The notes beneath the pieces were generated by a model. The model searched no databases. It was not told the origin of the DNA and was given only the letters and a program-made list of their open reading frames with translations. This document shows positions 7,265 to 25,024 of a stretch of DNA of 46,171 nt, piece by piece (the stretch's first letter is position 1; each line of letters begins with the position of its first letter). Origin of the DNA: Candidatus Limnocylindrales bacterium (GTDB taxonomy: Bacteria > Moduliflexota > Moduliflexia > Moduliflexales > JAUQPW01); contig DATMBG010000020.1 of the NCBI GenBank assembly GCA_035559535.1, positions 1 through 46,171 of the forward strand, in the 5' to 3' direction. The translations under genes and the position numbers were made by a program.

Positions 7265-7575
7265 AGCAGGACCTCCTTTACCGAGACCCGTTTTTATCGA
7301 TAACCAGAACGGAGTCCGGTTCGATGAAGACAGTCTCTTTGGCTAATCGTTATCATTTAATCTCTCTGGGTATTGGGAAATCTTCGTACCTTCCTCCCCG
7401 CCTCCTTTCCCCCACAAGCGGGGGAAGGGGGGGATAGAGATGGGGCTGGATTTCCACATTTTTCAGATAACCTGTATAAAAGATCGGACCCTGCAAGTTT
7501 CAAGTGATTCGGTTATGATAAAGATTCGAGTATCCGATAGTGGAAGAGAAAGCGGGAAGGTAAAAGGCCGTCGCA

Positions 7576-9141: not shown

Positions 9142-9363
9142 GTTTTAACCCCTGGTCTACGATCCGTAATTCTTGATTTTGAACCACGGATTCAGGATGA
9201 GGGGTAAAAGAAAAATTTAAAGAAATGATTTTCGTAAATTGGAGGCCCCCAACCCGGTATCGGACGAATCAGCGATGGGTCTGGGATAAAACCCCGGGAA
9301 TAACCTGCCGGGCATCAGTACCTTGGAAGGGTCTTCACTTATGCTTAACTTACAGAGGACGGT

Positions 9364-10554
9364 TTAGCTCCCCTCTGGACTGGCCTCTAATTTGACATTG
9401 AGGGTCAGAGACTTCCCGCCCCGGATGATGCCCACAGAAATTATCTCACCAACCCGTTGCTGGCGGATGATTTGAGTAATATCATCGGAGTTTATTATTT
9501 TCTCGCCGGCAATTTCGGTAATAATATCGCCCCCCACCATAATTTTACGACTCCCCAGTAAGTAAGCTTTATTTCCCCCCTGGATACCGGCTTTATCGGC
9601 AGGACTCCCCCGATAAATCTGAGCAACCATAAAACCTTCCTGAACGGGTAACTTCAAAATTTCTGCAATTTCGGGAATAATAGTCAGGCCACTGGCCACT
9701 CCCAACCAGGGTCTTATAACCCTTCCCTGGGTTATAAGCTGGTCTGCAATTTCTTTAGCCGTATGAATGGGAATGGCAAAACCAATACCCTGGGACCCTC
9801 CGGATCTGGAATAAATGGCGGTATTGATACCGATGACCTCTCCCCTGGAGTTGATTAGAGGGCCACCGCTGTTCCCAGGATTAATGGAGGCATCGGTCTG
9901 GATCACCTGACGGACTTCTGCATTTTCACTGATTCGGAGTTGTCGGTTCAGGGCGCTGATCACACCGGAGGTAACCGTTTGGTTAAATCCAAAAGGATTT
10001 CCAATAGCAATGGCCCTTTGGCCGACACGAAGTTTACGGGAATCTCCTAAAGTCACAGGACGTAGTTCGGGACTGGGGGGGATTTGAATCACCGCCAAAT
10101 CGGTTCCTGGATCCCGACCTACCAGTTTGGCAGGAACCTTTTTACCATTCGCCAGGGTTACCTCTAAAATCCTGGCATCTTCGATTACATGGTTGTTGGT
10201 CAGGATATGCCCCTTGTTATCGATAATAAATCCAGATCCCTGACCTTCTCGAGGTACGATATCCATCCAAAAGTTCAGTTCTAGAGTGGTTGCTGCAATA
10301 TTAACCACAGAGGGAGAAACCCGCTCATATACTTTAATCACGGTCTTTTCACTCAGATCTTCATCGGGAAAAGAACTATTTACTTCGGAAACCCTGGACT
10401 CTTCCAGAGGAACTTCCCTCGTAATTTCTGAAGCCGTCGGTAAGAGTTTTGTTATTTGACCGGACTTTAAATTCTCATAATAGGTCACACCCACAAAGAC
10501 CAGGATACCACTTATGAGGCCGCTTAACAGAGAGACAATAATATAACGGTACAT
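9364..10554 (-). CDS. HtrA/DegP-family serine protease with one PDZ domain
   Basis: TNNHVI, TDLAVI, GNSGGPL triad; N-terminal TM; PDZ. Confidence 0.95.
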   Translation of the reverse strand: MYRYIIVSLLSGLISGILVFVGVTYYENLKSGQITKLLPTASEITREVPLEESRVSEVNSSFPDEDLSEKTVIKVYERVSPSVVNIAATTLELNFWMDIVPREGQGSGFIIDNKGHILTNNHVIEDARILEVTLANGKKVPAKLVGRDPGTDLAVIQIPPSPELRPVTLGDSRKLRVGQRAIAIGNPFGFNQTVTSGVISALNRQLRISENAEVRQVIQTDASINPGNSGGPLINSRGEVIGINTAIYSRSGGSQGIGFAIPIHTAKEIADQLITQGRVIRPWLGVASGLTIIPEIAEILKLPVQEGFMVAQIYRGSPADKAGIQGGNKAYLLGSRKIMVGGDIITEIAGEKIINSDDITQIIRQQRVGEIISVGIIRGGKSLTLNVKLEASPEGS

Positions 10555-10690: not shown

Positions 10691-11422
10691 TTATTTAGAA
10701 TAATCTATCACTTCTGCCTCTTTAGGAACTTTAAAGTCAAATACACTATCTGCTACGTGGGTATTGAGCTGGATAGAATGGAATTCAATGGTGGTCGTAT
10801 CTTCATTGTTCTCTAAAAGCTGAGTCTTAATTGGAAGCCAGAGGTCCTTATCAATCCAGAGGGTCATCTTGGAAAAGTAAGATGAGAGGTCCTTATTCTT
10901 AGGGATCAGTTCCAGGACGTACACGTCTTTTTGATTCACCTTATCAGCCCCGATTAAATTTACCTCATAGGAGTCTCGGATTTCGGCGGTCGTAGAACCA
11001 AATCCTAGAAGAAGAGATTCCGTCTGGGCTTTATCTTTGAGATTAACCTTTTGAACTTGTTTAATTTTAGGTGAGTATAACCAGGCAATGCCTTTATTGA
11101 TAGTCAGCTTGTCGGAACTGGGTTTTTCAAACTCCCAGAGCATTTTCCCGCCTTTTTTGTAGGTCACTTTTCCGCTGGACTCGACCTTATCGTCAAATTG
11201 GGTAAAAACCTTAACCTGCCAAAAATCTGCTTTAAAATCGGTAAGATTTTTACCGGCCTGTTCCATCTGATCCAGAACATAGGAGAGCAGAGCTGCTTTA
11301 TCGTCAGCATCCGGCTCTTTTGACTTCCCAGAGATCTGGGCAAAGGCAGGACTCACCGTAAACAAAATTAAAAAAAGGATAATAATCATCAAGTTCTCTA
11401 TCCTCCATTTTACTTTAGTCAT
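10691..11422 (-). CDS. LolA-family outer-membrane lipoprotein carrier
   Basis: Signal peptide; ADFWQ..SSGKVTYKKGGKMLWEF..P, YSPKIKQV, FDFKVP; start overlaps upstream stop (ATGACTAA). Confidence 0.8.
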   Translation of the reverse strand: MTKVKWRIENLMIIILFLILFTVSPAFAQISGKSKEPDADDKAALLSYVLDQMEQAGKNLTDFKADFWQVKVFTQFDDKVESSGKVTYKKGGKMLWEFEKPSSDKLTINKGIAWLYSPKIKQVQKVNLKDKAQTESLLLGFGSTTAEIRDSYEVNLIGADKVNQKDVYVLELIPKNKDLSSYFSKMTLWIDKDLWLPIKTQLLENNEDTTTIEFHSIQLNTHVADSVFDFKVPKEAEVIDYSK

Positions 11423-12101
11423 TGATAATTTGCCCATCCCGCATTTTAATAATACGATGGGCCTTGGACGCGACTTCTCGATCATGGGTAATTAAGACAA
11501 TGGTTTGACCGAGTTGTTTATTCAAATCCATGAACAACTTAAGAATTGCAGCAGAGTTACCGGAGTCCAGGTTGCCGGTAGGTTCATCTGCAAGTACCAG
11601 GCTGGGTTTATTAATAAGGGCTCTGGCAATAGCGACCCGTTGTTGTTCCCCAATGGAAAGTTCGATAGGTCTATGATGCGATTTATTTTTCAAACCGACC
11701 AGGCTTAGCATATTCAAAACTTCTGATTTGCTTATGCCGTTACGAATGCCGTTTATTTTTAAAGCCATCTCAACATTTCCAAAAGCTGTCAGGGTTGGAA
11801 GCAAATTGAATCGTTGAAAAACAAAACCGACTTTCTCTCGCCGGATTCTGGTTAACTCACAATCCCTGGCCTGGGATAAATCCATGTCATCCAGAATAAC
11901 CTGGCCAGAGGTGGGATGCAGCAGGCCTCCCAATACGTGGAGGAGGGTTGATTTACCACATCCTGAAGGTCCCATAATGGCTACAAACTCCCCTTCCTGA
12001 ACTTCCATATGGATACCCCGAAGAGCCGGAACGATAACCTTCCCTATCTGATAATCCACCTTGAGGTCGATGGCTTTTAAAATCGTCTTCATACTATTCA
12101 T
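11415..12101 (-). CDS. LolD/MacB-type ABC ATPase
   Basis: GPSGCGKST, GFVFQRFNL, LSIGEQQR, LADEPTGNLD. Confidence 0.92.
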   Translation of the reverse strand: MNSMKTILKAIDLKVDYQIGKVIVPALRGIHMEVQEGEFVAIMGPSGCGKSTLLHVLGGLLHPTSGQVILDDMDLSQARDCELTRIRREKVGFVFQRFNLLPTLTAFGNVEMALKINGIRNGISKSEVLNMLSLVGLKNKSHHRPIELSIGEQQRVAIARALINKPSLVLADEPTGNLDSGNSAAILKLFMDLNKQLGQTIVLITHDREVASKAHRIIKMRDGQIIND

Positions 12102-13191
12102 ATCTGAGAGCTACGATAGGGTCTAATTTCACGGCCCGGAAAGCAGGATAAAAAGAACCCAACAGACCACCCAAGGTCCCTACGAGCCCAGAGATTAAAA
12201 TCCAGGAAAGCGTAATTTCGATGTTGAGAAGGGGATAAAAAGTTTGAATAATCTTTTTCGCCGCAAAAGCTAAACCATAACCGACCAGGACGCCCGCCAC
12301 GCAGAGCAATACAGACTCCAGAATAATATTACCCATGATAAACCCCTTGGAGGCACCCATTGCTTTCAAGATTCCTATTTCACGGGTGCGTTCCAGAATC
12401 GTTGTATACATGGCCAGAAGGATAACTAAAAAACTAATGAACAGGGTTGCAGACGTAATTCCCATGAGCAACTCATTTAGTCCCACAATGTTCTCCATCA
12501 TGGTTTCTACAAAGGTTTCCAAAATATACGCTTTTAAACCTTTTACCTGCTGTTCGATTTCATTGGCTACCTGCTTGATTTGACTTAGAGATTCTGCCTT
12601 CACAAAAAATAAAGAAACCCGTCCTTCTTCATCCATAGCCTTTTGAAGGGTTTCCAAAGGCATAAAAATTCTGGCTCCGACACCGGCCTTACTGATTCCT
12701 ACTATAGTATAGGAAGTACCCAAAAGATCTAAAGTGGATCCCACATCTAGATGATGAGCTTCTGCCAGTCGACTATCTACCACAATCTCTTCCCCTTGTT
12801 GGACCATGCGCCCTTTCAAAATTTCCAGATGGTTTCCAACCTGATTAAAACTCTCAGGTTGTATCCCATAAACGAGATTAATACTTCCCTGGATCGATGC
12901 CGTCCAGGTTATAACTGGAGTCACCGCCTTGACCCCAGGAACAGCCTGAATTTTCTCCTGTAACTTGATGGGAATGACCCCACTTTTTAAACCCAAAAAC
13001 ACAGAAGAATCTGCGCGCTGAACCAAAATATCTGCACCAATATTCTCGATCCGTCGGGCCGTATCGTTTACCGTGCCTTTCGCCATACCGATCAAAATGA
13101 GCAACATGGTAATACCCAGGGCAACGGCGAGGATACTAATCAGGCTGCGAACCCTCCGCTGTAAAATATTGGATAAAGGTAGATTAGCCAT
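12094..13191 (-). CDS. MacB/LolCE-type (FtsX-domain) ABC permease
   Basis: 1+3 TM topology, ERTREIGILKAMGA, PAFRAVKLDPIVALRYE; start at ATG 13191. Confidence 0.92.
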   Translation of the reverse strand: MANLPLSNILQRRVRSLISILAVALGITMLLILIGMAKGTVNDTARRIENIGADILVQRADSSVFLGLKSGVIPIKLQEKIQAVPGVKAVTPVITWTASIQGSINLVYGIQPESFNQVGNHLEILKGRMVQQGEEIVVDSRLAEAHHLDVGSTLDLLGTSYTIVGISKAGVGARIFMPLETLQKAMDEEGRVSLFFVKAESLSQIKQVANEIEQQVKGLKAYILETFVETMMENIVGLNELLMGITSATLFISFLVILLAMYTTILERTREIGILKAMGASKGFIMGNIILESVLLCVAGVLVGYGLAFAAKKIIQTFYPLLNIEITLSWILISGLVGTLGGLLGSFYPAFRAVKLDPIVALRYE

Positions 13192-13300
13192 AACATGGCG
13201 GGCAGCAAGGGGTGAGCAGGGAGTATGAGACCAACCGATGGTCATTACAGATCTTATCTTGTAGTTTCTTCCTATTTTTTCTACCCACTACCCGCTGCCT

Positions 13301-14158
13301 TTAATTCTCTAATTCGACCACCTTATGATCCTTAGGTAAAGAGAAGGTAAACATCTTGGGATTCAAATCGGTATTGATTTCAACCTCCCGAAAGATTAAA
13401 GCTACTTCAATGCCTTCCCAAGGTCTTTGAATCGTCACCCGATAAGGGAACTGGATTTTTTCGACCTTTTCATAGTTGTCGTAGGTAACATCACCGACCA
13501 ACGCACTTTTTTCATTAAAAGATTGATAACGTCGAATCCTCAAAGTTTTATGCTCAATAAATATACGGCGCCGGAGATAATATCCAGAACCTGCTTCCCC
13601 CCGATCCCCTATATTAAGAATGTAAGCCCCCGGTACGACTTCCATATAAATAAAGTGGGAGGTCTCCTCAGGAGTTATTTCTTCAAGGAGTAAGGCATCT
13701 ACCAGGTGGTAGGGACGTAATCTGTAAAGAGGATTTTCCTGCTGGGTATTTGAACTCCGAGGGTGATTCTTCCCTACAAAGACTTCTCTTTTAGATGGAA
13801 TATAAAGCCAAAATTGGATTCCATCGGAAACCATTGTAAAAAAAGTAGGTAGTAATTCTTTGAAGCTTATCAATAAAACCTTATCCGGACGTTCAACAGC
13901 CAGCTTGGCCTGAATACTTTGTTTTTTTTCTGCACCTACACTTTTAAAATCTATAAAGATAGACGATTTTAAATTATAAATAGACCGAGCTTGTGTATTA
14001 ACGATCGAGATTAATTTATCGAGGGGAACCTCCTGGTAGTCTTTAAAAGTCTTGATTTCTTTCAGAGAGGTATTTTTTGAACTCGCACAACCCAAAACTC
14101 CTATCCAGGTAAAGATTAAAAAGCTATAAAACAACCCGATATTTTGGAATTTTTTCAT
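13301..14158 (-). CDS. Lipoprotein with probable LolA/LolB-like fold (DUF4292-like)
   Basis: Lipobox VLGC; RPDK..SDGIQFWLYIP and FTFSLP resemble the LolA-like family. Confidence 0.6.
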   Translation of the reverse strand: MKKFQNIGLFYSFLIFTWIGVLGCASSKNTSLKEIKTFKDYQEVPLDKLISIVNTQARSIYNLKSSIFIDFKSVGAEKKQSIQAKLAVERPDKVLLISFKELLPTFFTMVSDGIQFWLYIPSKREVFVGKNHPRSSNTQQENPLYRLRPYHLVDALLLEEITPEETSHFIYMEVVPGAYILNIGDRGEAGSGYYLRRRIFIEHKTLRIRRYQSFNEKSALVGDVTYDNYEKVEKIQFPYRVTIQRPWEGIEVALIFREVEINTDLNPKMFTFSLPKDHKVVELEN

Positions 14159-14340
14159 TTTAAGATCATGGGGCAGATTCGTTTTTCAAAGAAAAGGGTT
14201 TCTCAGCTTCATAGTTCTTGATAAAACTCTTTTTCCTACATAAACCGATTTGGTATATTTTTAACATCGTCCCATGGATTGTGTCAAGGGATTTGCTATT
14301 TCAATTGACAATCTTTAAAAAAGTCTTAACAATGAATCCC

Positions 14341-14871
14341 ATGAATTCTAAGATACTTCCTTATGTTGTTTTGCGGCCCGGTTCGAAAAATCGCTTTTCG
14401 GCTTATCGTATATACTTTCTGGGCTTTTCTCAGCGGGGTAAAGTTTTTCTCTTAGGGGTCATTTTAACAGGAGTTTGCATGGGTTGTACCGTCCCACCTC
14501 CTGGTCCCATTACACCGACCAATACCCCTCCGGAATTAAGCGATTTCATTTTTCCCAGTCTGTACCGGGATATTTTTTTGAATAAAAATATCTATTATTT
14601 TCCAGGAGCCAGGGTCTCTTATAAAGACCCGGAAGCTAACCTGAGTCAGCTTATTCTTACTTTCCGACAAGGGATTACTTCCAGCTCTCTCATAGGTCAG
14701 GTGGTTACCTATTCTACCACTGGGACCCTGGCCCTGAACGGATTTGTAAGAAATATCGGAAGTCCAGGCCTGGATGTCTTCTCCCCCGGTACGGTTACGG
14801 TGAGCATTCAGGCTATAGACCGTGCAGGAGCTCGAAGCAATGTGCTAACCACGACCTTTGTACTATTGTAA
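14341..14871 (+). CDS. Hypothetical exported lipoprotein, possibly small Ig-like domain
   Basis: Hydrophobic stretch then CMGC, Pro-rich linker, NTPP..., VSIQAIDRAGARSN; start uncertain (14218/14332/14341). Confidence 0.6.
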   Translation: MNSKILPYVVLRPGSKNRFSAYRIYFLGFSQRGKVFLLGVILTGVCMGCTVPPPGPITPTNTPPELSDFIFPSLYRDIFLNKNIYYFPGARVSYKDPEANLSQLILTFRQGITSSSLIGQVVTYSTTGTLALNGFVRNIGSPGLDVFSPGTVTVSIQAIDRAGARSNVLTTTFVLL

Positions 14872-14887
14872 GTGGAGGAAATCCAAG

Positions 14888-17800
14888 ATGAGATTCCCTG
14901 AAGAAATTATCCAAACCTATCCCTACCCTCTGGCCGTATCTGCCAGTCGGGTAAACAATGCAACCCAAAGCATGGAGGAGTATCTATGCCTGGTTAGCCT
15001 GTTTGAAACGAGTTTAAAATATCTCGCTTCTGTGAGTTTAAGTCATTATCTTCAGGATGAGATCGTAGATGAAGGGATCCAGGAACAGTTAAAAAAACTA
15101 TTACGCCCGACCCCAGGAGCATGGAACGATATTTTGCGAGCCTGCATACGTTTTTATACCCATACCCTTCATAAACCTTCCCTGATATCTGAACTATGTA
15201 AAATATATACGACCCGACTACTCCATCGAGATCCTGGAACTCAGGAAATACTCGTGTGGTTTCGTTTCATGGCTAAATACCTTAAGGAAAAGGAAAAAGT
15301 AGTCCAGAAACATGTTTCCCTACAGCAGGTTTTAGACCTGATGGTTCAATACCATCACAAAATCTGGGGTCATAGAGTTCAACCCCTTACCCCTAAGTTT
15401 TGCGAAAAACATGTGGAATACTTTCGGACCGGCATGCAGGGAATATTAAAACGAATAGCTTTTTTGACCCGTTATCCACTACGATATATTAAAGAAGTCC
15501 GGCAAATCAAGGATCAGAATTGCCATATCCTGTTCCATTATATGGGGGTAGCGAGGCGACAAAGTGAATGGTATACGGATTTAAGTATCCCGGAAGGAAG
15601 GTTATACCTGTGTGATGAACAAGGGGTACCCGGATTAACCCTTTATCCTTTATGTGTTATCTATCACGGTCATGTTTACATGTTAGAGTATGATAGGCAA
15701 GAGAAGGGCCTCCGCTATAGAGATTGTGAGACGGGAGAATTTTTGGGGTCGGCTTCGCTCTCTCGTTCTTCCCTTTTCCAGTTGATAGGTACTCCTGCCA
15801 ACAAACTGGATGAGTTAGAATTACCCGTTCCACCAGAGCCAGAGGAGGATGGACTGGAGATCGATGAAACTCCCTTCAAACCTTTCCTGGGTGAACTACT
15901 GGCCCAGTTTAACGAGGAAGGACGCCAGGCCCTGGAGATGGCATTGGGTGAAGCGCTCCGTATCGGTCACTTCTGGTTAGGAGTTGAATTTTTACTCATG
16001 GCCCTTTCCAGGCAAGATGGGAGACCTCTGAGTGATTTGTTACATGGAATAGGACTAAGCCGAAGCCATTTCCGGGGTGTGCTGCGGGGTGTGGTGGGCA
16101 TTGCGACCCGTGAAGATTGGAGTCAAATGAATGCGATCGCTTTGGGGAGAAAAGCTCTTCCTAAATTAAAAGAAGCCAGGCCTACAATCATGAGGAGGGG
16201 TTTTAATTCTGAGGATAAACCCTTCCCTGTGATTACTCCGCGGATGAAGACTGTCTTACAAGAGGCCGTTCAGTTGGCCGGAAATGGGAAAGCCGGGCAT
16301 ATTCAATTGTTATCTGCAGCTTTACAGCATACCCAATGCCTGGCCGTTAATCTGTTGTTGAGGCAGATAGCCGAATCCGGTCAGGATTTGAAAGAATTTC
16401 TCAACTGGGTTAAACAGCTTGCAAACCATGGAGATCGTGTACCCAGTAAGATCGTAAAATCTCCTATAGAATTGCCCAAACAAGGGCCAGGACCCAATGC
16501 CCGTGCCTCACAATTACCTCTACCACCTCTCCTGCGAAATAAAGGCCTGCTGGATAGATATGGACGTGACTTAACTGCAGAAGCGCGGGCCGGTAGACTC
16601 CACCCGGCTATCGGGGTAGACGGAATCCTACGACGCCTGAAACGTATTTTGATCCAGCGAGAGAACAACAATCCTTTACTCATCGGGGAACCGGGGGTAG
16701 GTAAGACGGCCATTGTCGAAGGATTAGCCTACGAATGGGTCTATCAAGGTTCAGAATTACCAGAATTGTCCGGTAAGCGTATCGTTGAGCTTTCGATCAA
16801 CGGCCTGATTGCAGGTACTAAATATCGGGGCGAACTGGAAGAACGGATTGAGCAGATCCTGGCAGAAGTCAAAGCGGCACCCGATGTGATCATCTTTATC
16901 GACGAAATTCATACCGTTTTGGGTGGTGGGGGGGATAGCAGCACGAACCTGGCCAATATACTCAAACCGGCTTTGGCCAGAGGTGAATTTCCCTGTATCG
17001 GTGCAACGACCATAGCCGAATACCGCAAGTATATCGAAAAAGACCCGGCCTTGAGCCGACGTTTCGAAACCATCGTGGTAGAAGAACCCAGTATGGAAGA
17101 TACCATAAAGATCTTAAAAGGTCTTCAACAGGGCTTTGAAGACCATTATGGGATCCCTATTACCCAAAGTGGGATAGAGGCTGCGGTTCGGCTTTCAGTT
17201 CGCTATTTACCCGATGAGAGGCTACCGGCCAAGGCGATTAAACTTCTGGAACAGGCCGGAGCTTACACCAAACTTCCCTCATTGATTGATCTGGCGAGGG
17301 CAGACCGGGAAGAAATAACCCCCTCTCGCTTTAACGAGGTCAATGAAGATGTAATTCGTTACCTGCTGGCGCGAAAGACCGGAATTCCCCTGGAACGGTT
17401 AATGGGGGACGAGCTGGAGCGTATCAAAGGTATTGCAGAGGCGCTTCAAGCCCAGGTCATTGGACAGGATGAAGCCATCCAGGCCGTCGCTCAGGTTATT
17501 AAACGGGCACGAGCCGGATTGGGGAATCCCCTTCGACCTATTGGAGTATTTCTTTTTGTAGGACCAACCGGGGTTGGTAAAACCGAATTAGCCCGGGCAT
17601 TGGCCGGTTTTCTCTTTCATAACCGCGAAGCAATGATCCGCCTGGATATGTCAGAATATATGGAAAAACATCAGGTCTCCAGACTGATAGGTGCCCCACC
17701 CGGCTATGTAGGTTATGAGGAAGAGGGTCAACTCACGGGCCCGTTACGGTTGCGTCCCCATAGCGTCGTTTTATTGGATGAAATGGAAAAGGCCCACGAA

Positions 17801-18376
17801 GAGGTTCATAACCTCTTCTTACAACTCTTCGAAGAGGGCCGCCTGACCGACTCCAAGGGACGTACGGTGAGTGGTCGAGAAGCCATCTTTATTATGACCT
17901 CCAATGTCGGTTCAGAGGTATATCGCCAACAATCTATGGGTTTCCTCCCCAAGGAAAAATTGAGCCCGGAATGGCTCAAAGAAAAACAGGCCGGGATCGA
18001 AAAAGCACTCCGTATCAAATTTAAACCGGAGTTCCTCAATCGCATTGATCGGATAATCCACTTCAATCCTCTTACCTTGCCGGACGTCATCCGTATCTTC
18101 CAGTTGCAATTCGTGTCGATCCAGAAGCGATTACTGGATTACCATGAGATTCAACTCAAAATTACACCGGAAGCGGTTCAGTATGTCTGTGAAGAAGGCT
18201 ATGATACTTTAAACGGGGCCAGACCCCTAACCCGCGCCATGGATAGGCTGATTGTCGAACCGTTAACCGATTTGATCCTGGATGGAAAAATTAAGGCCTA
18301 CAACACCGTTACCATTCACTATGACGGTTCACAATTGACCTTTGAAAAAGGGTCGATCCCTGTAGAGATTCTGTGA
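14888..18376 (+). CDS. Hsp100/Clp ATPase (ClpA/ClpC-like) with extra ~330-aa N-terminal region
   Basis: Two Clp-N repeats; NBD1 [20 protein letters not shown]2 [24 protein letters not shown] loop; no ClpB M-domain; SD GGAGG before ATG 14888. Confidence 0.92.
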   Translation: MRFPEEIIQTYPYPLAVSASRVNNATQSMEEYLCLVSLFETSLKYLASVSLSHYLQDEIVDEGIQEQLKKLLRPTPGAWNDILRACIRFYTHTLHKPSLISELCKIYTTRLLHRDPGTQEILVWFRFMAKYLKEKEKVVQKHVSLQQVLDLMVQYHHKIWGHRVQPLTPKFCEKHVEYFRTGMQGILKRIAFLTRYPLRYIKEVRQIKDQNCHILFHYMGVARRQSEWYTDLSIPEGRLYLCDEQGVPGLTLYPLCVIYHGHVYMLEYDRQEKGLRYRDCETGEFLGSASLSRSSLFQLIGTPANKLDELELPVPPEPEEDGLEIDETPFKPFLGELLAQFNEEGRQALEMALGEALRIGHFWLGVEFLLMALSRQDGRPLSDLLHGIGLSRSHFRGVLRGVVGIATREDWSQMNAIALGRKALPKLKEARPTIMRRGFNSEDKPFPVITPRMKTVLQEAVQLAGNGKAGHIQLLSAALQHTQCLAVNLLLRQIAESGQDLKEFLNWVKQLANHGDRVPSKIVKSPIELPKQGPGPNARASQLPLPPLLRNKGLLDRYGRDLTAEARAGRLHPAIGVDGILRRLKRILIQRENNNPLLIGEPGVGKTAIVEGLAYEWVYQGSELPELSGKRIVELSINGLIAGTKYRGELEERIEQILAEVKAAPDVIIFIDEIHTVLGGGGDSSTNLANILKPALARGEFPCIGATTIAEYRKYIEKDPALSRRFETIVVEEPSMEDTIKILKGLQQGFEDHYGIPITQSGIEAAVRLSVRYLPDERLPAKAIKLLEQAGAYTKLPSLIDLARADREEITPSRFNEVNEDVIRYLLARKTGIPLERLMGDELERIKGIAEALQAQVIGQDEAIQAVAQVIKRARAGLGNPLRPIGVFLFVGPTGVGKTELARALAGFLFHNREAMIRLDMSEYMEKHQVSRLIGAPPGYVGYEEEGQLTGPLRLRPHSVVLLDEMEKAHEEVHNLFLQLFEEGRLTDSKGRTVSGREAIFIMTSNVGSEVYRQQSMGFLPKEKLSPEWLKEKQAGIEKALRIKFKPEFLNRIDRIIHFNPLTLPDVIRIFQLQFVSIQKRLLDYHEIQLKITPEAVQYVCEEGYDTLNGARPLTRAMDRLIVEPLTDLILDGKIKAYNTVTIHYDGSQLTFEKGSIPVEIL

Positions 18377-18696
18377 GGAGCACTAAACTTATTTTAGAAT
18401 TGCTTAATGGACCCCTGGACGGATATAAAGTTACCCTGGAAACCGAGACTTTCTGGAGCGGGAAAGGGGAAGGTCCTCTGGTTTTCCCCTGGGATATAGA
18501 ACTGGGTAATCCCCAGGCACGCTTCTTTTTTGAAGAAGGAAACTGGTGGCTGGAGAGCCTTCCTGCACGCCACGGGACCTATCGCCTGAATCGAGAAAAC
18601 CCTGAACGTATCGAAGGGAAAGTTAAACTAGAAACAGGAGATATCTTGAAGGCCAGTGGAACCTGGTTACTGGTAAGTCAGATTAAACAAGACTAA
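18373..18696 (+). CDS. Small FHA-fold protein (degenerate)
   Basis: LELLNGPLDG..., WWLESLPARHGTY, LETGDIL pattern; GTGA overlap with the Clp stop. Confidence 0.7.
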   Translation: MRSTKLILELLNGPLDGYKVTLETETFWSGKGEGPLVFPWDIELGNPQARFFFEEGNWWLESLPARHGTYRLNRENPERIEGKVKLETGDILKASGTWLLVSQIKQD

Positions 18697-19072
18697 AAAA
18701 TTATCCCAAAACTCCTGGAAATTAAATCGATAGGGATAATCCCATTTCCGTATTGGGACGCAGCATAACTGGTAGAAGCAATTCCAGGGGCATTGAGCTC
18801 ATACTAGGTCGACATTGAAATAGAATCGAAAGGACCAGGACAACTCCTCCCTCTTTGCTTTCAATAGGGTACCTTTTTACTAAATATAATAACTTATTTA
18901 CTAGATCAAGTTGTCATGCAAGCTAACCTGCGTTAAGCTCCTAGTAGGGTCCAGAACGTGAGACAACCTTGAACCTTATATGGATCCTGATTGATCAACG
19001 GTTGAATTGTTAGAATTACTTTCTCAGAGTATCTGTTTCCATTTAGTAGGTAGCGGAATGATTCATTTCCTT

Positions 19073-19312
19073 CTCGTTCCCAGGCTCTGCCTTAATGACA
19101 TTAAGTTAAGGGTTCAAGGCCCCCTTACATTCCCCCGCATGCGGGTGAAGAGGGGGGGTGTCCTGCTAAACAAGGTTGTCCCTGATGAAGCTTTGGAATT
19201 TTAGACAGGATCTGTTGGACTGTAAACAGGACGTTCCTGACGGAGCTAAAGGTTCTTCAGTCTTACTCTTTGTTCTTAACTTAACGGCCTTGAGGTTCTG
19301 CCTGGGAACGAG
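19073..19312. repeat. REP-like palindrome split by the MITE
   Basis: Empty site reconstructs as CTCGTTCCCAGGC-TCT-GCCTGGGAACGAG (13-bp stem). Confidence 0.75.
19093..19292. mobile_element. 200-bp IS4-family-like MITE
   Basis: 18-bp TIRs TAATGACATTAAGTTAAG / CTTAACTTAACGGCCTTG (14/18); 11-bp TSD AGGCTCTGCCT / AGGTTCTGCCT. Confidence 0.8.
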
Positions 19313-19475
19313 GGGGCTAGCAAAAATTATCCATTACCTACCAAACGGATACAGATACCTTTCTGAGAGAAATACTTGACAGGAAAATTCATTTATGAAA
19401 TAACACATATGAATTCCTTCGATCCGAATTGATTTAAAGTATCCGGACCATTAAATGCATATAGGAGTGTATCCT

Positions 19476-20174
19476 ATGGAATATCGCTTTACCATCAAAG
19501 AAATGCCTGAAGATGAAAGGCCTCGAGAGCGGCTGGCGAGTTTCGGACCTGAAGCCCTCTCCAACCATGAACTTCTGGCCATTATTCTTTCGACCGGATA
19601 TAAAGCAGGTGGAAGGACTTACACGGCGCTGGAACTGGCTACGCAACTCCTGAATCATTTTGGAAGCCTGAAAGAATTGGCTAAGGCAAGTTTTGAAGAA
19701 CTGTGTAAACTTCCCGGCGTAGGTCCTGCCAAAGCCTGCCAGATCAAAAGCGCCTTTGAACTGGGAAATCGTGTAGCCTTGTCGGGTGGGGAACCCAAAC
19801 CTGTCATCAAAAGACCTCAGGATGTGGTTCAGTATTTTAAAAATCGAATGAGCCTGCTCAAAAAAGAGGAGTTCGTTGTAGCGATTCTGGATACCAAGAA
19901 TAAGCTGGTTAAAGATGTGGTAATCTCTCGAGGGACCTTAAACGCTTCCATTGTCCATCCTCGGGATGTTTTTAATGTAGCGGTAACCCACATGGCCAGC
20001 GCCCTCATCCTTCTCCACAATCATCCTTCCGGAGACCCCTCTCCAAGTGGAGAGGACATCGAAATTACCCGACGATTGGCCGAAGTCGGAAAACTGATGG
20101 GAATTGAAGTTCTGGATCATATCATCATTGGAGATGGAAACTACGCAAGCCTGAAGGAGATGAAGCTTTTCTAA
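19476..20174 (+). CDS. radC: RadC-family JAB-domain protein
   Basis: RPRERL..GPEALSNHELLA, HhH GVGPAKA, HNHPSGDPSPSGED; SD AGGAG. Confidence 0.95.
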   Translation: MEYRFTIKEMPEDERPRERLASFGPEALSNHELLAIILSTGYKAGGRTYTALELATQLLNHFGSLKELAKASFEELCKLPGVGPAKACQIKSAFELGNRVALSGGEPKPVIKRPQDVVQYFKNRMSLLKKEEFVVAILDTKNKLVKDVVISRGTLNASIVHPRDVFNVAVTHMASALILLHNHPSGDPSPSGEDIEITRRLAEVGKLMGIEVLDHIIIGDGNYASLKEMKLF

Positions 20175-20230: not shown

Positions 20231-22618
20231 TTATTTTTCTTTCATTTCATGGACCCCTTCCCAATCGGGAGGCGGTGGATTTAACTTATAATTCTGACAA
20301 CGTTCCAGGAAAAGCTTACAGGCTTTGTCTTCCGTTTTTATCTTTAAAGCCTTCTCAAAACAGAAGATAGCCTGATCCCAGTTCTGGCTTCGATATTCTT
20401 TCAAACCGGCCTCAAAGGTTTGGATGAAATCCTGGACCTCTGCAGAGAGAATCCCCTCTCCGATTAATTCGTAGATGGTAACGGGTTCCATCTTTCCTTT
20501 GACCGTAATTCGATCTAATTCCCGTACAATAAAAGGAAGACCTTTAATAAGTTTATAGGTATTCTCACTCAGGATAATGTTGGTTCCATACTGTTTATTG
20601 ACCCCTTCCAGCCGAGAAGCTAAATTGACCTGATCTCCAATGATGGTATAATCGAACCGACTGTGGGAACCCATATTTCCTACCACCACTTCACCGGAAT
20701 TGATGCCGATCCCAATATCCAGAAACGGATATCCTTGGGCTTTCCATTGGATCCGCATTTCTCTTAATTTAGTCATCATATCGAGGGCGGTCTTACAGGC
20801 ACGAACGGCATGATCTTCCTGGGGTAAGGGGGCTCCAAAAAAAGCCATGATAGCATCTCCCATGTATTTATCCAGAGTCCCTTTATAGTTCATGACAATA
20901 TCGGTCATAGGAGTAAGATATTCGTTGAGAAAATGAACAAGTTCTTCTGCATCCAACCTCTCAGACAGGGAAGTAAATCCGCGAATATCTGAAAATAGAA
21001 CCGTCAGATATTTCCTTTCACCACCCAATTTAAGCCTTTCAACGTCTTCCAGGAGTTCATCCACAACCGCCGGGGCTACATAGTGTTGAAAAGCGTTTCG
21101 GATTTCCCTTTTACGACGCTCTTCTGAAAAGTATTTATACGAAGTAAGACTCGTATAATTGATTACTATTAATAGAAAAGGGTAGGTAAAGTTTAACCAA
21201 ACCTTTGAGTAAATGAATGCCCCATACACGAACCCGGCCAAAAGGGCTATACAAAACAGGGTCAGGACAATTCCGGGTGCTAACCTGAATCTGGGGAGGA
21301 GAAAACCGATTAAGAAACCCACACATAAAATAACCAGACCATCCCAAGCAATGGCGATTCCAGGTCGGGTTAGAAAATCCCTTTGAAGAATATTTTCAAT
21401 AACAGTGGCATGGATCTCAACCCCTGGAAACTTGGCCTGAAAAGGGGTAGGATGTAAATCCTGGCTGATATCTCCGGTCCATCCCAGCAGGACAATTTTA
21501 TCTTTCACATCTTCAGGACGAATTTCTTTTTCACAACGTGCATCCAGGGGTTTTCCGGTAATACGCTCACAGAGAATGACATCGGCCAGGGAGTAGTAAT
21601 GAAACATCCCTTCAGGTCCGTAATAATTGATCAGAAGCCGTGCCTGTTCATCTACCGGTATGACAATATCTTTCAGTAGAATACTATCTACTTCACCATA
21701 CCTTCCCTCTGTAGTTTCACGGATATAAATAATCGGCTGTGAAGCGTTAGGATCCAGAGCAAAGCGGGCTACTTCTAAATCCAGAGAAGGATAATAATTT
21801 CCTTTATACTCCATCAGCAAAGGGACCCATCTACGATTCCCATCCACGTCTGGAAATACATTAAAATGTCCGAAGCTTTTCGCTGCACTGGAAAATCTGG
21901 GGATATTAAGCTCTACTTCCACTCCACGTTCAAGCTTTAGAGGAGGACGTACAGCCGAGCGATAGCGTAGGATTCCGTACCTGGTACGGGACATAAGCTG
22001 CTGATTGGCTTCAGATTGCTCAAGTGTAACCTGTTGGGCATCGTTTGCCGAGAGATAATAGGTCCCTAAAATGGCGTTACCGAAACTCTTGAGAGCCGCT
22101 TCCAGTCTGGCATCGTAGTCGAGGTTGATCTCTAACTCCTGGAGATGTTTTAAATAATCAAGATTCGGGTTACTTCCCGCCTTTGAAAGGTAATCCGCTT
22201 TAAGGGATTGAATAGCCTGGAGGGCCGCATTTTCACCGGTGGTCGAGAAACTTACATCGAATCCGATAATCCGTGCACCTCCCTGAGTCAGGATATGAAT
22301 AAAATCCGCAATCCAGGCTCTTCCGGTAGATTGCCACCTCCCTAATCGATCATGGGTTTTTTCATCCACGGCAACAATGAGAATATGATTGGTAGGCGTT
22401 CGGGGACCTCGTAATTGAAACCTGAAATTGAGGGTATAGGCCTCAATGATATCCAGCAGATTCAACCTCAAGAACCGGTAATAGGAACCTTCTATCCTGG
22501 GCAAAACATATAGGAGTAATATAAGGAGGGTCCAAATCAAACTTATGAAAAAGCCCATACGTCGACCTTCTCCACTTTGTCTTTTCTTTTTTCCAGATTT
22601 ATCGGTTTTATCCGCCAT
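20231..22618 (-). CDS. CHASE2-domain class III adenylate/guanylate cyclase
   Basis: CHASE2 (ILIVAVDE, GVEIHA), 3 TM, LFSDIRGFT, DKYMGDA, GDQVNLASRLE, TPR-like tail. Confidence 0.93.
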   Translation of the reverse strand: MADKTDKSGKKKRQSGEGRRMGFFISLIWTLLILLLYVLPRIEGSYYRFLRLNLLDIIEAYTLNFRFQLRGPRTPTNHILIVAVDEKTHDRLGRWQSTGRAWIADFIHILTQGGARIIGFDVSFSTTGENAALQAIQSLKADYLSKAGSNPNLDYLKHLQELEINLDYDARLEAALKSFGNAILGTYYLSANDAQQVTLEQSEANQQLMSRTRYGILRYRSAVRPPLKLERGVEVELNIPRFSSAAKSFGHFNVFPDVDGNRRWVPLLMEYKGNYYPSLDLEVARFALDPNASQPIIYIRETTEGRYGEVDSILLKDIVIPVDEQARLLINYYGPEGMFHYYSLADVILCERITGKPLDARCEKEIRPEDVKDKIVLLGWTGDISQDLHPTPFQAKFPGVEIHATVIENILQRDFLTRPGIAIAWDGLVILCVGFLIGFLLPRFRLAPGIVLTLFCIALLAGFVYGAFIYSKVWLNFTYPFLLIVINYTSLTSYKYFSEERRKREIRNAFQHYVAPAVVDELLEDVERLKLGGERKYLTVLFSDIRGFTSLSERLDAEELVHFLNEYLTPMTDIVMNYKGTLDKYMGDAIMAFFGAPLPQEDHAVRACKTALDMMTKLREMRIQWKAQGYPFLDIGIGINSGEVVVGNMGSHSRFDYTIIGDQVNLASRLEGVNKQYGTNIILSENTYKLIKGLPFIVRELDRITVKGKMEPVTIYELIGEGILSAEVQDFIQTFEAGLKEYRSQNWDQAIFCFEKALKIKTEDKACKLFLERCQNYKLNPPPPDWEGVHEMKEK

Positions 22619-22759: not shown

Positions 22760-23680
22760 TTAAGAATCTAAAAAACTCCTTACCAAAGGAACAATCTCAG
22801 AGAGATGCTCTGCTACGAGAATCCCGGCTTCCTTAAACTTTTCAATCTTGGATCGAGTACTTCCTTTGGTTCCTTCCACGATTACAGCAGCATGTCCGAA
22901 TCGAACGCCCGGCATCTCATCGGCAAAACGCCCGGCTACAAAAGCCACAATTGGCAGCGAAACCCTATGTTCGAGGACGTACTCGGCTAACCTTTCTTCG
23001 GCCGTTCCGCCCGGTTCGCAGAAGATAACGACTCCTCGGGTTTCCGGGTCTTTTTCAAATAACGGGAGCAAATCCAGAAAGTTAGATCCTACCACCGGGT
23101 CCCCACCGATACTCACGCAGGTACTCTGACCGATCCCATGAAGGGTAAGCAGATTTGCAATCTCGGTGGTCATCCCACCACTTCTAGACATAACCCCTAT
23201 AGGCCCCGGTGAATAAGCCTTTCGAACATCTTCAGCAGGTCCTCCAATCATGCCGATTTTGATTCGATGGGGGGAAATGAGTCCTAAAGAGTTGGGTCCG
23301 ATAATCCGGGCTCTCTTTTCCTCTGCATATTCTACCATTTCAATTACATCTCTTCGGGGAATCCGCTCGGTTACAATCACCAGGAGTTTAATATCATGAT
23401 CCAAGGCTTCAAAGGCTGCACTCTTGGCAACCGAAGGAGGGACAGAAATGATAGAGGCAAATTGTGTTCTCTTCAAATTTTCCCTTTGTTCAGACCTTTC
23501 CAGGGCTTCCTGGACGGTATCATAGACGGGTACTCCGTAGACTTCAAGACCTCCTTTACCCGGAGTCACACCGGCTACCACCTTCGAGCCATAATCCAAA
23601 AGGTTCTTCGTAAAGGTAGCCGCTTCTCTCCCTGTAATACCTTGAACAATCAGACGGGTATTTTCGTCGGCTAGAATCAT
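22760..23680 (-). CDS. SucD-like ADP-forming CoA ligase, alpha subunit (divergent)
   Basis: IVQGITG, GVTPGKGG, SRSGGM, SIGGD, phospho-His in RFGHAA. Confidence 0.85.
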   Translation of the reverse strand: MILADENTRLIVQGITGREAATFTKNLLDYGSKVVAGVTPGKGGLEVYGVPVYDTVQEALERSEQRENLKRTQFASIISVPPSVAKSAAFEALDHDIKLLVIVTERIPRRDVIEMVEYAEEKRARIIGPNSLGLISPHRIKIGMIGGPAEDVRKAYSPGPIGVMSRSGGMTTEIANLLTLHGIGQSTCVSIGGDPVVGSNFLDLLPLFEKDPETRGVVIFCEPGGTAEERLAEYVLEHRVSLPIVAFVAGRFADEMPGVRFGHAAVIVEGTKGSTRSKIEKFKEAGILVAEHLSEIVPLVRSFLDS

Positions 23681-23727
23681 ACCTACAAGGGGACGAAAGG
23701 CCAAAGGTGAAAGGGTAAAAATCCACT

Positions 23728-24933
23728 TTACCCTTTTACTTTTGACTTTTCCTCTTTTACTCTCATAACCGCACGCCGGGCCGCTTCATCAATAGAAACA
23801 GTTCGATCACAGTAAGGCACGCCGTATTTCTCGAGAATCTTAAACCCTTCCCTTTCCCAAGAACCTGGGACTCTAAAAACGGCAATGGCTTCAGAAGGGA
23901 GACGGCCGGATTCTATAACCCCTTTAATCACACCCCGGGCCACCAGATCAACCCGGGTATTGCTCACCACGTTCATGATAACTGCTATCTGTTTAACTCC
24001 AGGCTTGGAAAGAATCAGCTTGGTCAACTCACAGACTTTTCGGACGCTGGGATTGCCACCGATCTCACAATAATTGGCAGGCTTTCCTCCATGGTTTCGG
24101 ATAGCATCGAAGGCAGTTAGACTGGCCCCTCCCCCTCCGATAATAAGACCCAATTCCCCCTCAAACTCGATCATCCGTCCGGCAACCCCCCGGTGATCCA
24201 GACTATCGATTCTGGCCGCCTCCCTTTCAAACTCTGTGGCTTGTCGGATTCCTGTATCCCGTCGTGGAATTCCGAAGACCCGTTCCAACTCCGGATGACG
24301 GTAAAGGGCATCCTCCTCAATTTCCAAATGACCATCCAAAGCCACCACTTCCCCCTGGCTTGTTCTACCCAAGGGGTTGATCTCGGCCAGGGTGGCATCA
24401 TAGCGGATGAATATTTCGACCAGCTTGAATAAAACTTCTGAAACCTGTAAAAGCTCCTTTCCTTTGATCCCGGCTTTAGCCACCACCTCTCGGGCTTGAT
24501 GCTCCAGGAAACCCCGGGTCAATTTAAAAACCCGGGTGATAATTTTTTCTCGTTCTACCTTTGCAAGCTCTTCGATATCCACTCCGCCTTCGACGCTAAA
24601 TAAAACAAGGGGGGTTTTAGCCGTTGTATCGTAGGTAACTCCCAGGTAGTATTCCCGTTCCAGGGGAAGTTTTTCTTCGATTAAAAGTTGACGTACTTCG
24701 TATCCCCGTATCCCATTTCCCAATAGGCGGTTGGCCAGACTTTTTGCCTCGGTCCGGCCAGAAGCAAAGATCACCCCTCCCGCCTTACCTCTTCCTCCAG
24801 ATGGAATTTGAGCCTTTAAAACCAAATCCCCTTCCTCTTGGATCTCTTCAGGGGAAGTTATTAAAACACCTCTGGGAATTCGAATGCCGTGATGCTGAAA
24901 TATTTTTTTAGATTCATATTCAAGGAGTCGCAT
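23728..24933 (-). CDS. SucC-like ATP-grasp CoA ligase, beta subunit (divergent)
   Basis: LLEYESK, KAQIPSGGRGKAGG, GGVDIE, EINPL; non-canonical ligase loops. Confidence 0.85.
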   Translation of the reverse strand: MRLLEYESKKIFQHHGIRIPRGVLITSPEEIQEEGDLVLKAQIPSGGRGKAGGVIFASGRTEAKSLANRLLGNGIRGYEVRQLLIEEKLPLEREYYLGVTYDTTAKTPLVLFSVEGGVDIEELAKVEREKIITRVFKLTRGFLEHQAREVVAKAGIKGKELLQVSEVLFKLVEIFIRYDATLAEINPLGRTSQGEVVALDGHLEIEEDALYRHPELERVFGIPRRDTGIRQATEFEREAARIDSLDHRGVAGRMIEFEGELGLIIGGGGASLTAFDAIRNHGGKPANYCEIGGNPSVRKVCELTKLILSKPGVKQIAVIMNVVSNTRVDLVARGVIKGVIESGRLPSEAIAVFRVPGSWEREGFKILEKYGVPYCDRTVSIDEAARRAVMRVKEEKSKVKG

Positions 24934-24939
24934 ACCGTT

Positions 24940-24968
24940 TTTATAATGACCGCCTCCGGTTTTGTCAA
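24940..24968 (-). promoter_or_regulatory. Promoter of the sucC-like gene (probably leaderless)
   Basis: TTGACA-N17-TATAAA, 6 nt, then ATG. Confidence 0.55.
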
Positions 24969-24995
24969 ATAGAAAACATGTCAAAATCCGGTTCA

Positions 24996-25024
24996 TTGCA
25001 TTCTATCCGGTTCGGTCTTATACT
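24996..25024 (+). promoter_or_regulatory. sigma70-type promoter of the LD-carboxypeptidase/M16 genes
   Basis: TTGCAT-N17-TATACT. Confidence 0.6.

Follow-up and report, generated by a model that had tools for sequence, protein, structure and literature searches.

The 46,171-nucleotide stretch analysed here, hereafter the window (positions 1 to 46,171, forward strand, of contig DATMBG010000020.1 in assembly GCA_035559535.1, Candidatus Limnocylindrales bacterium, GTDB lineage Moduliflexota), encodes at positions 14,888 to 18,696 two overlapping genes: a 1162-aa Clp-type ATPase fused to an N-terminal domain that we call the N-domain, and a 107-aa protein with an FHA fold. Pairs of this kind are found in widely separated bacterial phyla, in most cases next to protein kinase genes, and we are inclined, with somewhat more confidence than doubt, to regard it as a dedicated unfoldase–adaptor module in which a HEPN-like domain would act as a pseudo-nuclease recognition domain. 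A Clp unfoldase with an adaptor is a known kind of machine; new are the unannotated HEPN-type domain family and the FHA-fold protein as a predicted partner of the Clp_N domain.

The fusion gene forms an uninterrupted open reading frame (ORF) from the ATG at 14888 to the TGA at 18376. Pfam recovered in residues 597–1143 the AAA (D1), AAA_lid_9 (over profile positions 1–62 of 104 only), AAA_2 (D2) and ClpB_D2-small domains; the pore loops KYRG (645–648, D1) and GYVG (939–942, D2) are in place, R724/R725 and GAR 1110–1112 are retained, and arginine fingers and sensor-2 are present. The protein thus carries what defines class-I Clp/Hsp100 ATPases, namely two AAA+ modules with Walker A/B motifs, a pore-loop tyrosine, arginine fingers and D2-small, which bears out the original prediction of a Clp ATPase with both nucleotide-binding domains intact. 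Among the NCBIfam models, the ClpA equivalog (TIGR02639) aligned in a single stretch (residues 447–1143 against model positions 76–732 of 734) at 627.2 bits, short of its cut-off of 993.15. ClpB (707.8 bits; cut-off 1232.1), ClpV/TssH (596.8 bits; cut-off 884.95) and ClpG (552.7 bits, below cut-off) each aligned in two separate stretches. Judged by these profiles, the fusion protein is an equivalog of no named Clp family. The distance from the start of the lid to the start of AAA_2 is 148 aa, compared with 257 aa in the true ClpB of the window (43005–45596), a difference of 109 aa. The single-stretch ClpA alignment and the short D1–D2 spacing therefore point to a ClpA/ClpC-type two-ring unfoldase lacking the ClpB-type coiled-coil M-domain, and set the protein apart from the window's own clpB, as had been proposed.

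An x-G-F-type tripeptide in the D2 loop is the ClpP docking element of Clp unfoldases. The MGF that had been singled out in the window protein (residues 1017–1019) indeed aligns with the LGF of the ClpC-like paralogue from the same genome (contig C42), whereas the genome's ClpB and a further paralogue on contig C22 have no such tripeptide. Nearly all relatives of the fusion keep [MAVLI]-G-[FL] at this position, the exceptions being VSF (P0006) and MGT (P0100), and the host genome encodes two full-length ClpP proteins. The unfoldase thus probably works with ClpP.

Residues 1–320 matched no Pfam or NCBIfam family, even at permissive thresholds, and PADLOC 2.0 returned nothing system-specific for the N-domain of ten family members or for the window proteins, with no match at all on the FHA-fold protein. 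An exhaustive HMMER search of 1.84 billion representatives recovered 268 proteins at E<=0.001, with 68 at E<=1e-10; in 126 of the 154 long matches the N-domain lies at the front of the protein, starting within its first 40 residues. Scanning 39 long members, we found Pkinase in 16, TPR in 10, AAA/AAA_22 in 8–10 and the full Clp D2 set in 5, while 47 shorter members yielded zinc ribbons, TPR, WD40 and Clp_N. A Clp_N-like repeat follows the N-domain in 25 of 155 collected proteins, and both AAA modules are then present in 15. By these sequence associations, the N-domain is a mobile module of kinases, AAA/STAND ATPases and Clp ATPases, much as the original prediction had stated; methylase fusions were not among the 25 commonest families per tally. 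The RPSLGxW…RN..H signature, likewise given there, corresponds to real family columns (R156 in 150/158, N157 in 130/158, H162 in 126/156), and the further motifs of the family are YPYP[LI]A, E40-x3-K44, R-P-S-L-G-x-W79 and Y-R156-N157-x3-G-H162-G-A. Four further full-length fused proteins share 76, 51, 49 and 38% identity with the window protein over residues 1–320, and a genome of the same genus carries the fusion at 89% identity. In the ESM Atlas, the nearest clusters were unnamed hypothetical proteins (0.93–0.94), with EAD11 and SAM clusters appearing only at 0.80, a lead at most.

An AlphaFold2 model of the N-domain, built on a 47-sequence alignment, reached a predicted local distance difference test score (pLDDT) of 92.5 and a predicted template-modelling score (pTM) of 0.92, with a helical part (residues 1–195) followed by a beta-rich one (198–280). 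Foldseek found no match for this model at E<=0.001 in PDB or BFVD, and a profile search of solved-structure sequences with the N-domain alignment matched low-complexity C-terminal columns only, none of them in the domain. A VIA-align scan, which does not depend on Foldseek, gave middling scores only, but HEPN proteins took ranks 1–3 and made up eight of the top 50 entries. No HEPN profile of Pfam or NCBIfam matched residues 1–320 or the family members P0009 and P0013, and none was among the 25 commonest families per tally for the other members. In the portion of Anantharaman et al. (2013; PMC3710099) drawn on here, HEPN domains, with structures such as 1wwp and 2hsb, are described as having four core helices, frequently with an insertion that separates helix 2 from helix 3, an Rx4–6H motif that runs from the end of helix 3 into the next loop and whose R is followed by a polar residue (N, D or H), and a helix 2 with an acidic residue, in many cases as part of E-x3-[KR]. 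Our model places the R156-N157 columns in the last turn of helix 145–161, H162 as the first loop residue, and E40-x3-K44, present in the window protein, in helix 28–56. The acidic residue of the window protein and the Rx4–6H motif of its family thus lie where the HEPN definition puts them, which supports the HEPN-like reading made earlier; the window protein itself, with H156-H157…H162, lacks the Rx4–6H pattern. We infer from this correspondence that the N-domain belongs to the HEPN superfamily, and that in kinase, STAND and stand-alone proteins it would be an RNase-type effector.

The codons at 15353–15358 are CAT CAC and encode H156 H157, so that the motif HHKIWGH is degenerate, as the original prediction had read it; loss of the triad turned out to prevail among Clp fusions. 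We split the aligned copies by architecture, with at least four duplicate loci among those counted. The R-N-H triad was complete in 38/41 kinase fusions and in 73/82 of the other proteins, as against 6/42 Clp fusions, and E40 occurred in 41/41, 84/90 and 9/38 of these groups, respectively. Position 160 is a nearly fixed tryptophan in Clp fusions (41/42), where kinase fusions have L or I. K44 is kept in 34 of 38 Clp fusions, and R alone in 31 of 42, typically in the form YREKEWQDAA. The window protein belongs to a minority subclade in which the motif is otherwise kept, as YRN..WGH in P0004–P0007, P0010 and P0012; in the lineage of the window protein itself the motif is gone, with YHHKIWGH in the window, YHNKIWGH in the same-genus locus (L005) and YHNKIWNQ in P0003. 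Against the L005 orthologue, a single sequence pair, the ratio of nonsynonymous to synonymous substitution rates (dN/dS) is 0.21 for the N-domain, 0.12 for Clp_N, 0.08 for the AAA region and 0.22 for the FHA protein; at 0.21, the N-domain is therefore maintained rather than decaying. As far as sequence comparison goes, the N-domain of Clp fusions has lost catalytic-type residues yet is under purifying selection.

The GTG start of the downstream gene, at 18373, overlaps the Clp stop codon in the sequence GTGA, confirming the overlap noted earlier. Its 107-aa product matched the NCBIfam FhaB model (E 1.9e-4), and a seven-sequence profile of it matched only FHA chains in PDB, weakly (E 0.08 or more). 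An AlphaFold2 model from a 41-sequence alignment reached a pLDDT of 92.1 and gave 38 Foldseek matches in PDB at E<=0.001, of which all those listed are FHA domains, the best being ArnA (5a8i; E 7.1e-7, template-modelling (TM) score 0.82). According to this model, the protein has an FHA fold, an 11-strand beta-sandwich. Distant cousins (~30% identity) share its N-terminal LExLsGPLDG and keep the canonical GR, SRRHA and STNGT; at the columns of the canonical GR arginine, the SxxH serine and histidine, and the NG asparagine, proteins of the window type have a variable residue, G45, Q48 and H67, and they carry invariant PWD, PQA and HGTY motifs. In its sequence, the canonical phosphothreonine-binding residues have been lost, a degeneracy that had gone unnoticed in the original prediction. 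The FHA-fold protein is 50–71% identical across phyla, compared with ~30% for the N-domain, and its GPLDG loop is invariant in 41 sequences.

Co-folding of residues 1–545 of the fusion protein (17-row alignment) with the FHA-fold protein (41-row alignment) gave an interaction prediction score from aligned errors (ipSAE) of 0.79 (runs 0.78, 0.82 and 0.79), against 0.01 for the best control; 58 of the 80 solved complexes attained this mark, as did 2 of the 110 mismatched pairs, counts that hold only roughly because our own alignments were used. The runs share at least 86% of their contacts, with a partner pLDDT of at least 85. All confident contacts on the fusion protein lie in Clp_N (361–367, 403, 430–441, 448–455 and 483–486), none in the N-domain; on the FHA side they involve the GPLDG loop (9–18), loop 32–40 and residues 42, 98 and 100, and the contacts of the GPLDG loop with the lowest error are those with T450, P451, R452 and W363. 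The two surfaces consist of residues invariant in their respective families (W363, G365, E367 and T450-P451-R452-M453 on the Clp_N side; G13-P14-D16-G17 on the FHA side). We know of no solved FHA–Clp_N complex, so it seems unlikely that this prediction passed on model memory. The FHA-fold protein is thus predicted to dock on Clp_N through its GPLDG loop, at the domain where Clp adaptors bind, which lends substance to the adaptor role proposed for it earlier.

Conservation of the pair was examined in both directions. A forward search of GTDB genomes with an N-domain plus Clp_N query yielded eight loci, including a same-genus metagenome-assembled genome (MAG), a KSB1 MAG and several Chloroflexota, and in all six that reach downstream an FHA-like gene directly follows the Clp gene (E 4e-28 to 7e-68). 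A reverse search of metagenomes with the FHA-like alignment yielded 77 loci, with 30 unique loci in the close group (>=47% identity); 24 have at least 500 nt upstream, 10 at least 3800 nt upstream and 18 at least 1600 nt downstream. A Clp AAA gene lies directly upstream of the FHA-like gene in 19 of the 24, and one more (L032) has N-domain plus Clp_N without AAA, bringing to 20 those in which the FHA-like gene follows a Clp AAA or Clp_N gene; at L021, the upstream Clp C-terminus was recognized by eye. Among the 10 loci with the longest upstream sequence, the N-domain is present in 7, Clp_N in 9 and AAA in 9. Within 1600 nt downstream of the FHA-like gene, 14 of 18 loci have a Ser/Thr kinase gene; the neighbouring kinases are Pkinase plus TPR proteins, often in several copies, and represent a third component that the original prediction had not included and that is absent from the window. 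The fusion and its FHA neighbour, whose conservation had been named as the point on which the prediction would stand or fall, accordingly recur across distant phyla. In the distant group with canonical FHA domains, a Clp AAA gene lies upstream in 7 of 29 loci and a kinase downstream in 2 of 22. A canonical FHA protein with the same LExLsGPLDG N-terminus directly follows a Clp-type ATPase at L053, L054, L055, L057, L058, L060, L065 and L086, and the ATPases of the three inspected (L053, L054 and L058) lack the ClpP-loop tripeptide. This canonical-FHA branch may represent an ancestral, phosphothreonine-dependent form of the pair.

Taken together, these features suggest how the module might work. 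A ClpA/ClpC-type hexameric AAA+ unfoldase would probably feed ClpP, given the MGF tripeptide and the two ClpP genes of the genome. Its Clp_N domain would be permanently partnered with the translationally coupled, phospho-independent FHA-fold protein, acting as adaptor or gate and docking through the GPLDG loop and the neighbouring loop 32–40, in a manner comparable to the use of the ClpA N-domain by ClpS and of the ClpC N-domain by MecA or phospho-arginine. The pseudo-HEPN domain, carried on a flexible acidic linker, would serve as a non-catalytic recognition, bait or specificity element that binds RNA, a ligand or a protein and so selects the targets of the unfoldase. The Ser/Thr kinase–TPR genes that flank the pair in other phyla probably control the module, of which the window genome keeps the two-gene core only.

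Some of the observations are weak, and several others weigh against this picture of a dedicated unfoldase–adaptor module. The Pfam FHA model scored 19.2 bits on the 107-aa protein, just under its gathering cut-off of 20.7, and Clp_N reached only E 0.036 in the window protein; orthologues carry a clear Clp_N (PF02861), with four family members matching, the best at E 5.3e-10. The architecture-split residue counts are affected by the duplicate loci mentioned above, and H156/H157, with H162 kept, might still support some chemistry. Three of the 24 reverse loci have no Clp gene upstream (L019, with a TPR protein; L046, rearranged; L050, none), and two variants break the simple arrangement, one with N-domain, Clp_N and FHA protein but no AAA (L009, L032) and the other with Clp_N-AAA and FHA protein but no N-domain (L011, L034, L040). 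Both variants keep Clp_N and the FHA protein, which thus appear as the constant core, in agreement with an interface invariant on both sides. As for the surroundings, a tblastn search of the window with a neighbour kinase returned only noise (E 5 or more), neither a kinase nor a remnant of one lies near the module, and the flanking genes are of the housekeeping kind (Lol-like and ABC genes, RadC, a CHASE2 cyclase, ATP-citrate-lyase-like genes, an M16 peptidase and ClpB). The defence-island context that the original prediction had asked for is therefore missing here and, with no adjacent kinase, a conflict role finds no local support.

The components also permit other readings, none of which we consider probable. 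It is unlikely, though not negligibly so, that the fusion protein is a ClpP-independent remodeller or disaggregase of the ClpV, ClpB or ClpG type, with the FHA protein and kinases regulating its recruitment. The PpkA–Fha1–ClpV threonine-phosphorylation pathway of type VI secretion has the same triad of parts (FHA protein, Ser/Thr kinase and Clp-type ATPase), the corresponding models score high, and the distant loci couple a canonical FHA protein to a Clp ATPase without the ClpP tripeptide. However, the scores fall far below their cut-offs, the M-domain is missing, the fusion family retains the x-G-F tripeptide that the genome's own ClpB lacks, the FHA protein has lost its phosphothreonine residues, and a reading of the ORFs in the window and in the loci inspected revealed no secretion genes. 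An elaboration on the recognition role, to which we give a comparably low probability, is that the dead HEPN-type domain could be an integrated decoy mimicking the active effector domain of kinase or STAND immune-type proteins: a captured targeter, such as an invader inhibitor, a specific RNA or a ligand, would be delivered to the Clp ring and ClpP, with the FHA gate on Clp_N switched by kinase–TPR sensors. If true, this would give bacteria a guard-and-destroy mechanism of a sort not known from them, with the FHA fold as a new class of Clp adaptor and the N-domain as a new HEPN family.

Still less probable to us is that the N-domain is a homotypic adaptor, in the manner of effector-associated domains, which would bind its counterpart on a kinase or STAND protein and so recruit that protein to the unfoldase, to be inactivated or activated there. 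HEPN domains often work as dimers, and the N-terminal placement on many different signalling proteins (those 126 long matches) would suit such a role; yet the Clp fusion is the sole copy of the domain among the six-frame ORFs of at least 70 aa in the host genome, it is again the only match with this query in four other fusion-carrying genomes, and the neighbouring kinases lack the N-domain. We rate slightly lower the prospect that the N-domain is a still-active nuclease or toxin, gated or activated by the Clp module and the FHA protein. The window protein keeps H162, E40 and K44, six of the 42 Clp fusions have the full triad, and H is among the usual residues after R in the part of PMC3710099 drawn on here; against this, R156, the most conserved residue of the family, is replaced in the window and its two closest relatives, and most Clp fusions have lost E40, N157 and H162. 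An explanation of the fusion by chimeric assembly or gene decay, which has nothing in its favour beyond the unusual architecture, is next to impossible and already refuted: the same architecture occurs on independent contigs of several phyla, the frame is open for 1162 codons, and dN/dS is 0.08–0.22 in all parts.

Substrate choice by Clp unfoldases rests on their N-domains and on a small set of known adaptors. The module favoured here shares with ClpA/ClpS and ClpC/MecA (or McsB phospho-arginine) a two-ring Hsp100 without M-domain, an x-G-F tripeptide and a Clp_N-like double repeat as the predicted docking site of a small dedicated partner. Unlike these systems, it has an FHA-fold partner, an additional 290-aa N-terminal domain and a ClpA score below cut-off, and its partner gene is translationally coupled and co-conserved across phyla. 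Canonical FHA domains (OdhI/GarA, ArnA, FhaA) have the same fold as the 107-aa protein (TM 0.7–0.82), to which the LExLsGPLDG cousins provide sequence continuity; the window protein differs in lacking the four phosphothreonine-binding residues named above, and in its new invariant motifs. The N-domain family has in common with the HEPN superfamily an R-N-x4-H that closes a core helix, the polar residue following its R, an E-x3-K in the long helix before it, and a sizeable insert separating the two hairpins. It differs in being much larger (a ~90-aa helical insert and a fused small beta-barrel), in matching no HEPN hidden Markov model in the scans above, in leaving Foldseek silent and, in the window copy, in lacking R and N. 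The pairing of kinase and HEPN domains recalls the KEN domains of Ire1 and RNase L. The DolB and PDC-M37B models of PADLOC, both candidate defence systems, matched the D2 module (E 4e-31 and 2.5e-34, respectively) through the generic AAA part only; the N-domain and FHA protein have no counterpart there.

A working analogy for a regulated-proteolysis circuit that joins a Ser/Thr kinase and a small protein to a Clp machine is the PrkA–ReoM–ClpCP control of MurA in Listeria, as outlined in the excerpted text of PMC7286690. The small protein and the substrates are unrelated, however, and the window has no linked kinase. Nor are the genes of the Listeria circuit known to form a conserved operon with the unfoldase. 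In the excerpted part of PMC7159879, ClpN repeats and FHA domains are listed among the components that occur sporadically in conflict systems. Full-text literature searches found no paper describing a Clp ATPase with this N-domain or an FHA-fold partner, in line with the earlier impression that the system had not been described; the supplementary tables of PMC7159879, PMC8195603 and PMC3710099 may list the domain under another name.

If the proposed module holds, the partner class would be new: FHA-derived, dead in its phospho-pocket and co-conserved across phyla, with a predicted interface in which the GPLDG loop enters the Clp_N groove at W363/T450–R452. The N-domain defines a large family hitherto without annotation (268 representative clusters, no Pfam entry), with HEPN-type catalytic motifs on kinases and STAND-like ATPases, and the motif loss specific to Clp fusions would offer a clean natural case of a pseudo-enzyme domain recruited to a proteolytic machine. 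Should the kinase–TPR and caspase neighbours seen in Chloroflexota and KSB1 share its circuit, the module would tie Ser/Thr signalling to targeted unfolding in bacteria with complex lifestyles.

Individual loci showed further peculiarities. At L009 (Anaerolineales MAG; 6437–7738, 7578–9605), the AAA-less N-domain plus Clp_N protein is encoded between a Peptidase_C14 caspase-family gene and the FHA-like gene, surrounded by four kinase–TPR genes. At L019, a TPR-repeat gene (2–865) precedes the FHA-like gene, with no Clp ATPase in the 867 nt available, and the end of its product resembles an extra C-terminal D2-small-like extension of P0004, P0006 and L021. An ORF of ~300 aa before Clp_N-AAA at L011 (7057–7962) and L034 (3486–4400), considered as a diverged N-domain, was rejected (hhalign probability 0.08); it matches no Pfam family.

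The coordinates of the module and of its parts are collected in Table 1.

Table 1. Sequence features of the fusion gene, its FHA-fold partner and the adjacent upstream ORF (window positions)
Feature	Position	Strand	Basis
Upstream ORF, <=217 aa, lipoprotein-like signal, no Pfam family; ends 17 nt before fusion gene	14218..14871	+	
GGAGGA, Shine-Dalgarno-like, 10 nt before fusion-gene ATG	14873..14878	+	direct sequence reading
Fusion gene, 1162 aa: HEPN-like N-domain, linker, Clp_N-like repeat, D1 and D2 AAA+, D2-small	14888..18376	+	sequence, Pfam, NCBIfam
N-domain, helical part, residues 1–195; proposed HEPN core helices 13–24, 28–56, 145–161, 169–189; helical insert 57–144	14888..15472	+	
E40-x3-K44 (ETSLK) inside long helix 28–56	15005..15019	+	
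Degenerate motif Y155-H-H-K-I-W-G-H162 (consensus Y-R-N-x-x-x-G-H), end of helix 145–161	15350..15373	+	
N-domain, beta-rich C-terminal part, residues 198–280, small-barrel-like fold	15479..15727	+	
Acidic/Pro-rich linker, residues 291–330, low model confidence	15758..15877	+	
Divergent Clp_N-like double repeat, residues 331–545; predicted docking surface for FHA-fold protein	15878..16522	+	
D1 AAA+ module with lid: Walker A 600–607, Walker B D672-E673, KYRG pore loop	16553..17287	+	
D2 AAA+ module: Walker A 892–899, Walker B D964-E965, GYVG pore loop	17453..18052	+	
M1017-G-F1019 tripeptide, loop after sensor-1, position of ClpP-docking [LIV]-G-[FL] motif	17936..17944	+	
ClpB_D2-small domain, residues 1062–1143	18071..18316	+	Pfam E 9.9e-19
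FHA-fold protein, 107 aa, degenerate phosphothreonine pocket; GTG start overlaps Clp stop (GTGA)	18373..18696	+	
Invariant G13-P-L-D-G17 loop of FHA-fold protein, predicted insertion into Clp_N domain	18409..18423	+	

An hmmsearch of all six-frame ORFs of at least 70 aa found a single N-domain in the host genome, which also has one FHA-like gene, five kinases elsewhere and three other Hsp100 genes. One of the latter (G000 C22:320919–323696), the paralogue without the ClpP tripeptide mentioned above, encodes 926 aa and lies ~1 kb from a weak partial ClpP-family match (C22:324735–324920; 26 bits). In 40 other genomes searched, a full-length match was found only in the same-genus genome, with weak partial matches in two more. 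The ORF upstream of the fusion gene is conserved only in the same-genus locus and contains a promoter-like site at 14305–14333; it is possibly co-transcribed with the fusion gene, and its membership of the module is uncertain.

The 760 bp that follow the FHA gene hold no long ORF, and an Rfam scan of the intergenic sequence (18696–19455) gave no match. A long imperfect inverted repeat occupies 18954–19385, with 38-nt arms at 19073–19110 and 19275–19312 (79% complementary) and outer complementary stretches; elsewhere in the genome, only short partial copies occur (contigs C6 and C52). Directly upstream of the module, on the opposite strand, 10691–14158 (-) encodes a LolA-like protein, an ABC ATPase, an FtsX-like permease and a second LolA-like/DUF4292 lipoprotein. 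Downstream lie genes for a RadC-like JAB protein (19455–20174, +) and a 795-aa CHASE2-adenylate/guanylate cyclase (20231–22618, -), followed at 22760–24996 (-) by two adjacent genes with CoA-ligase, ATP-grasp_2 and citrate-binding domains. These resemble subunits of ATP-citrate lyase/citryl-CoA synthetase and, going by their domains, hint at a reductive tricarboxylic acid cycle in this uncultured lineage.

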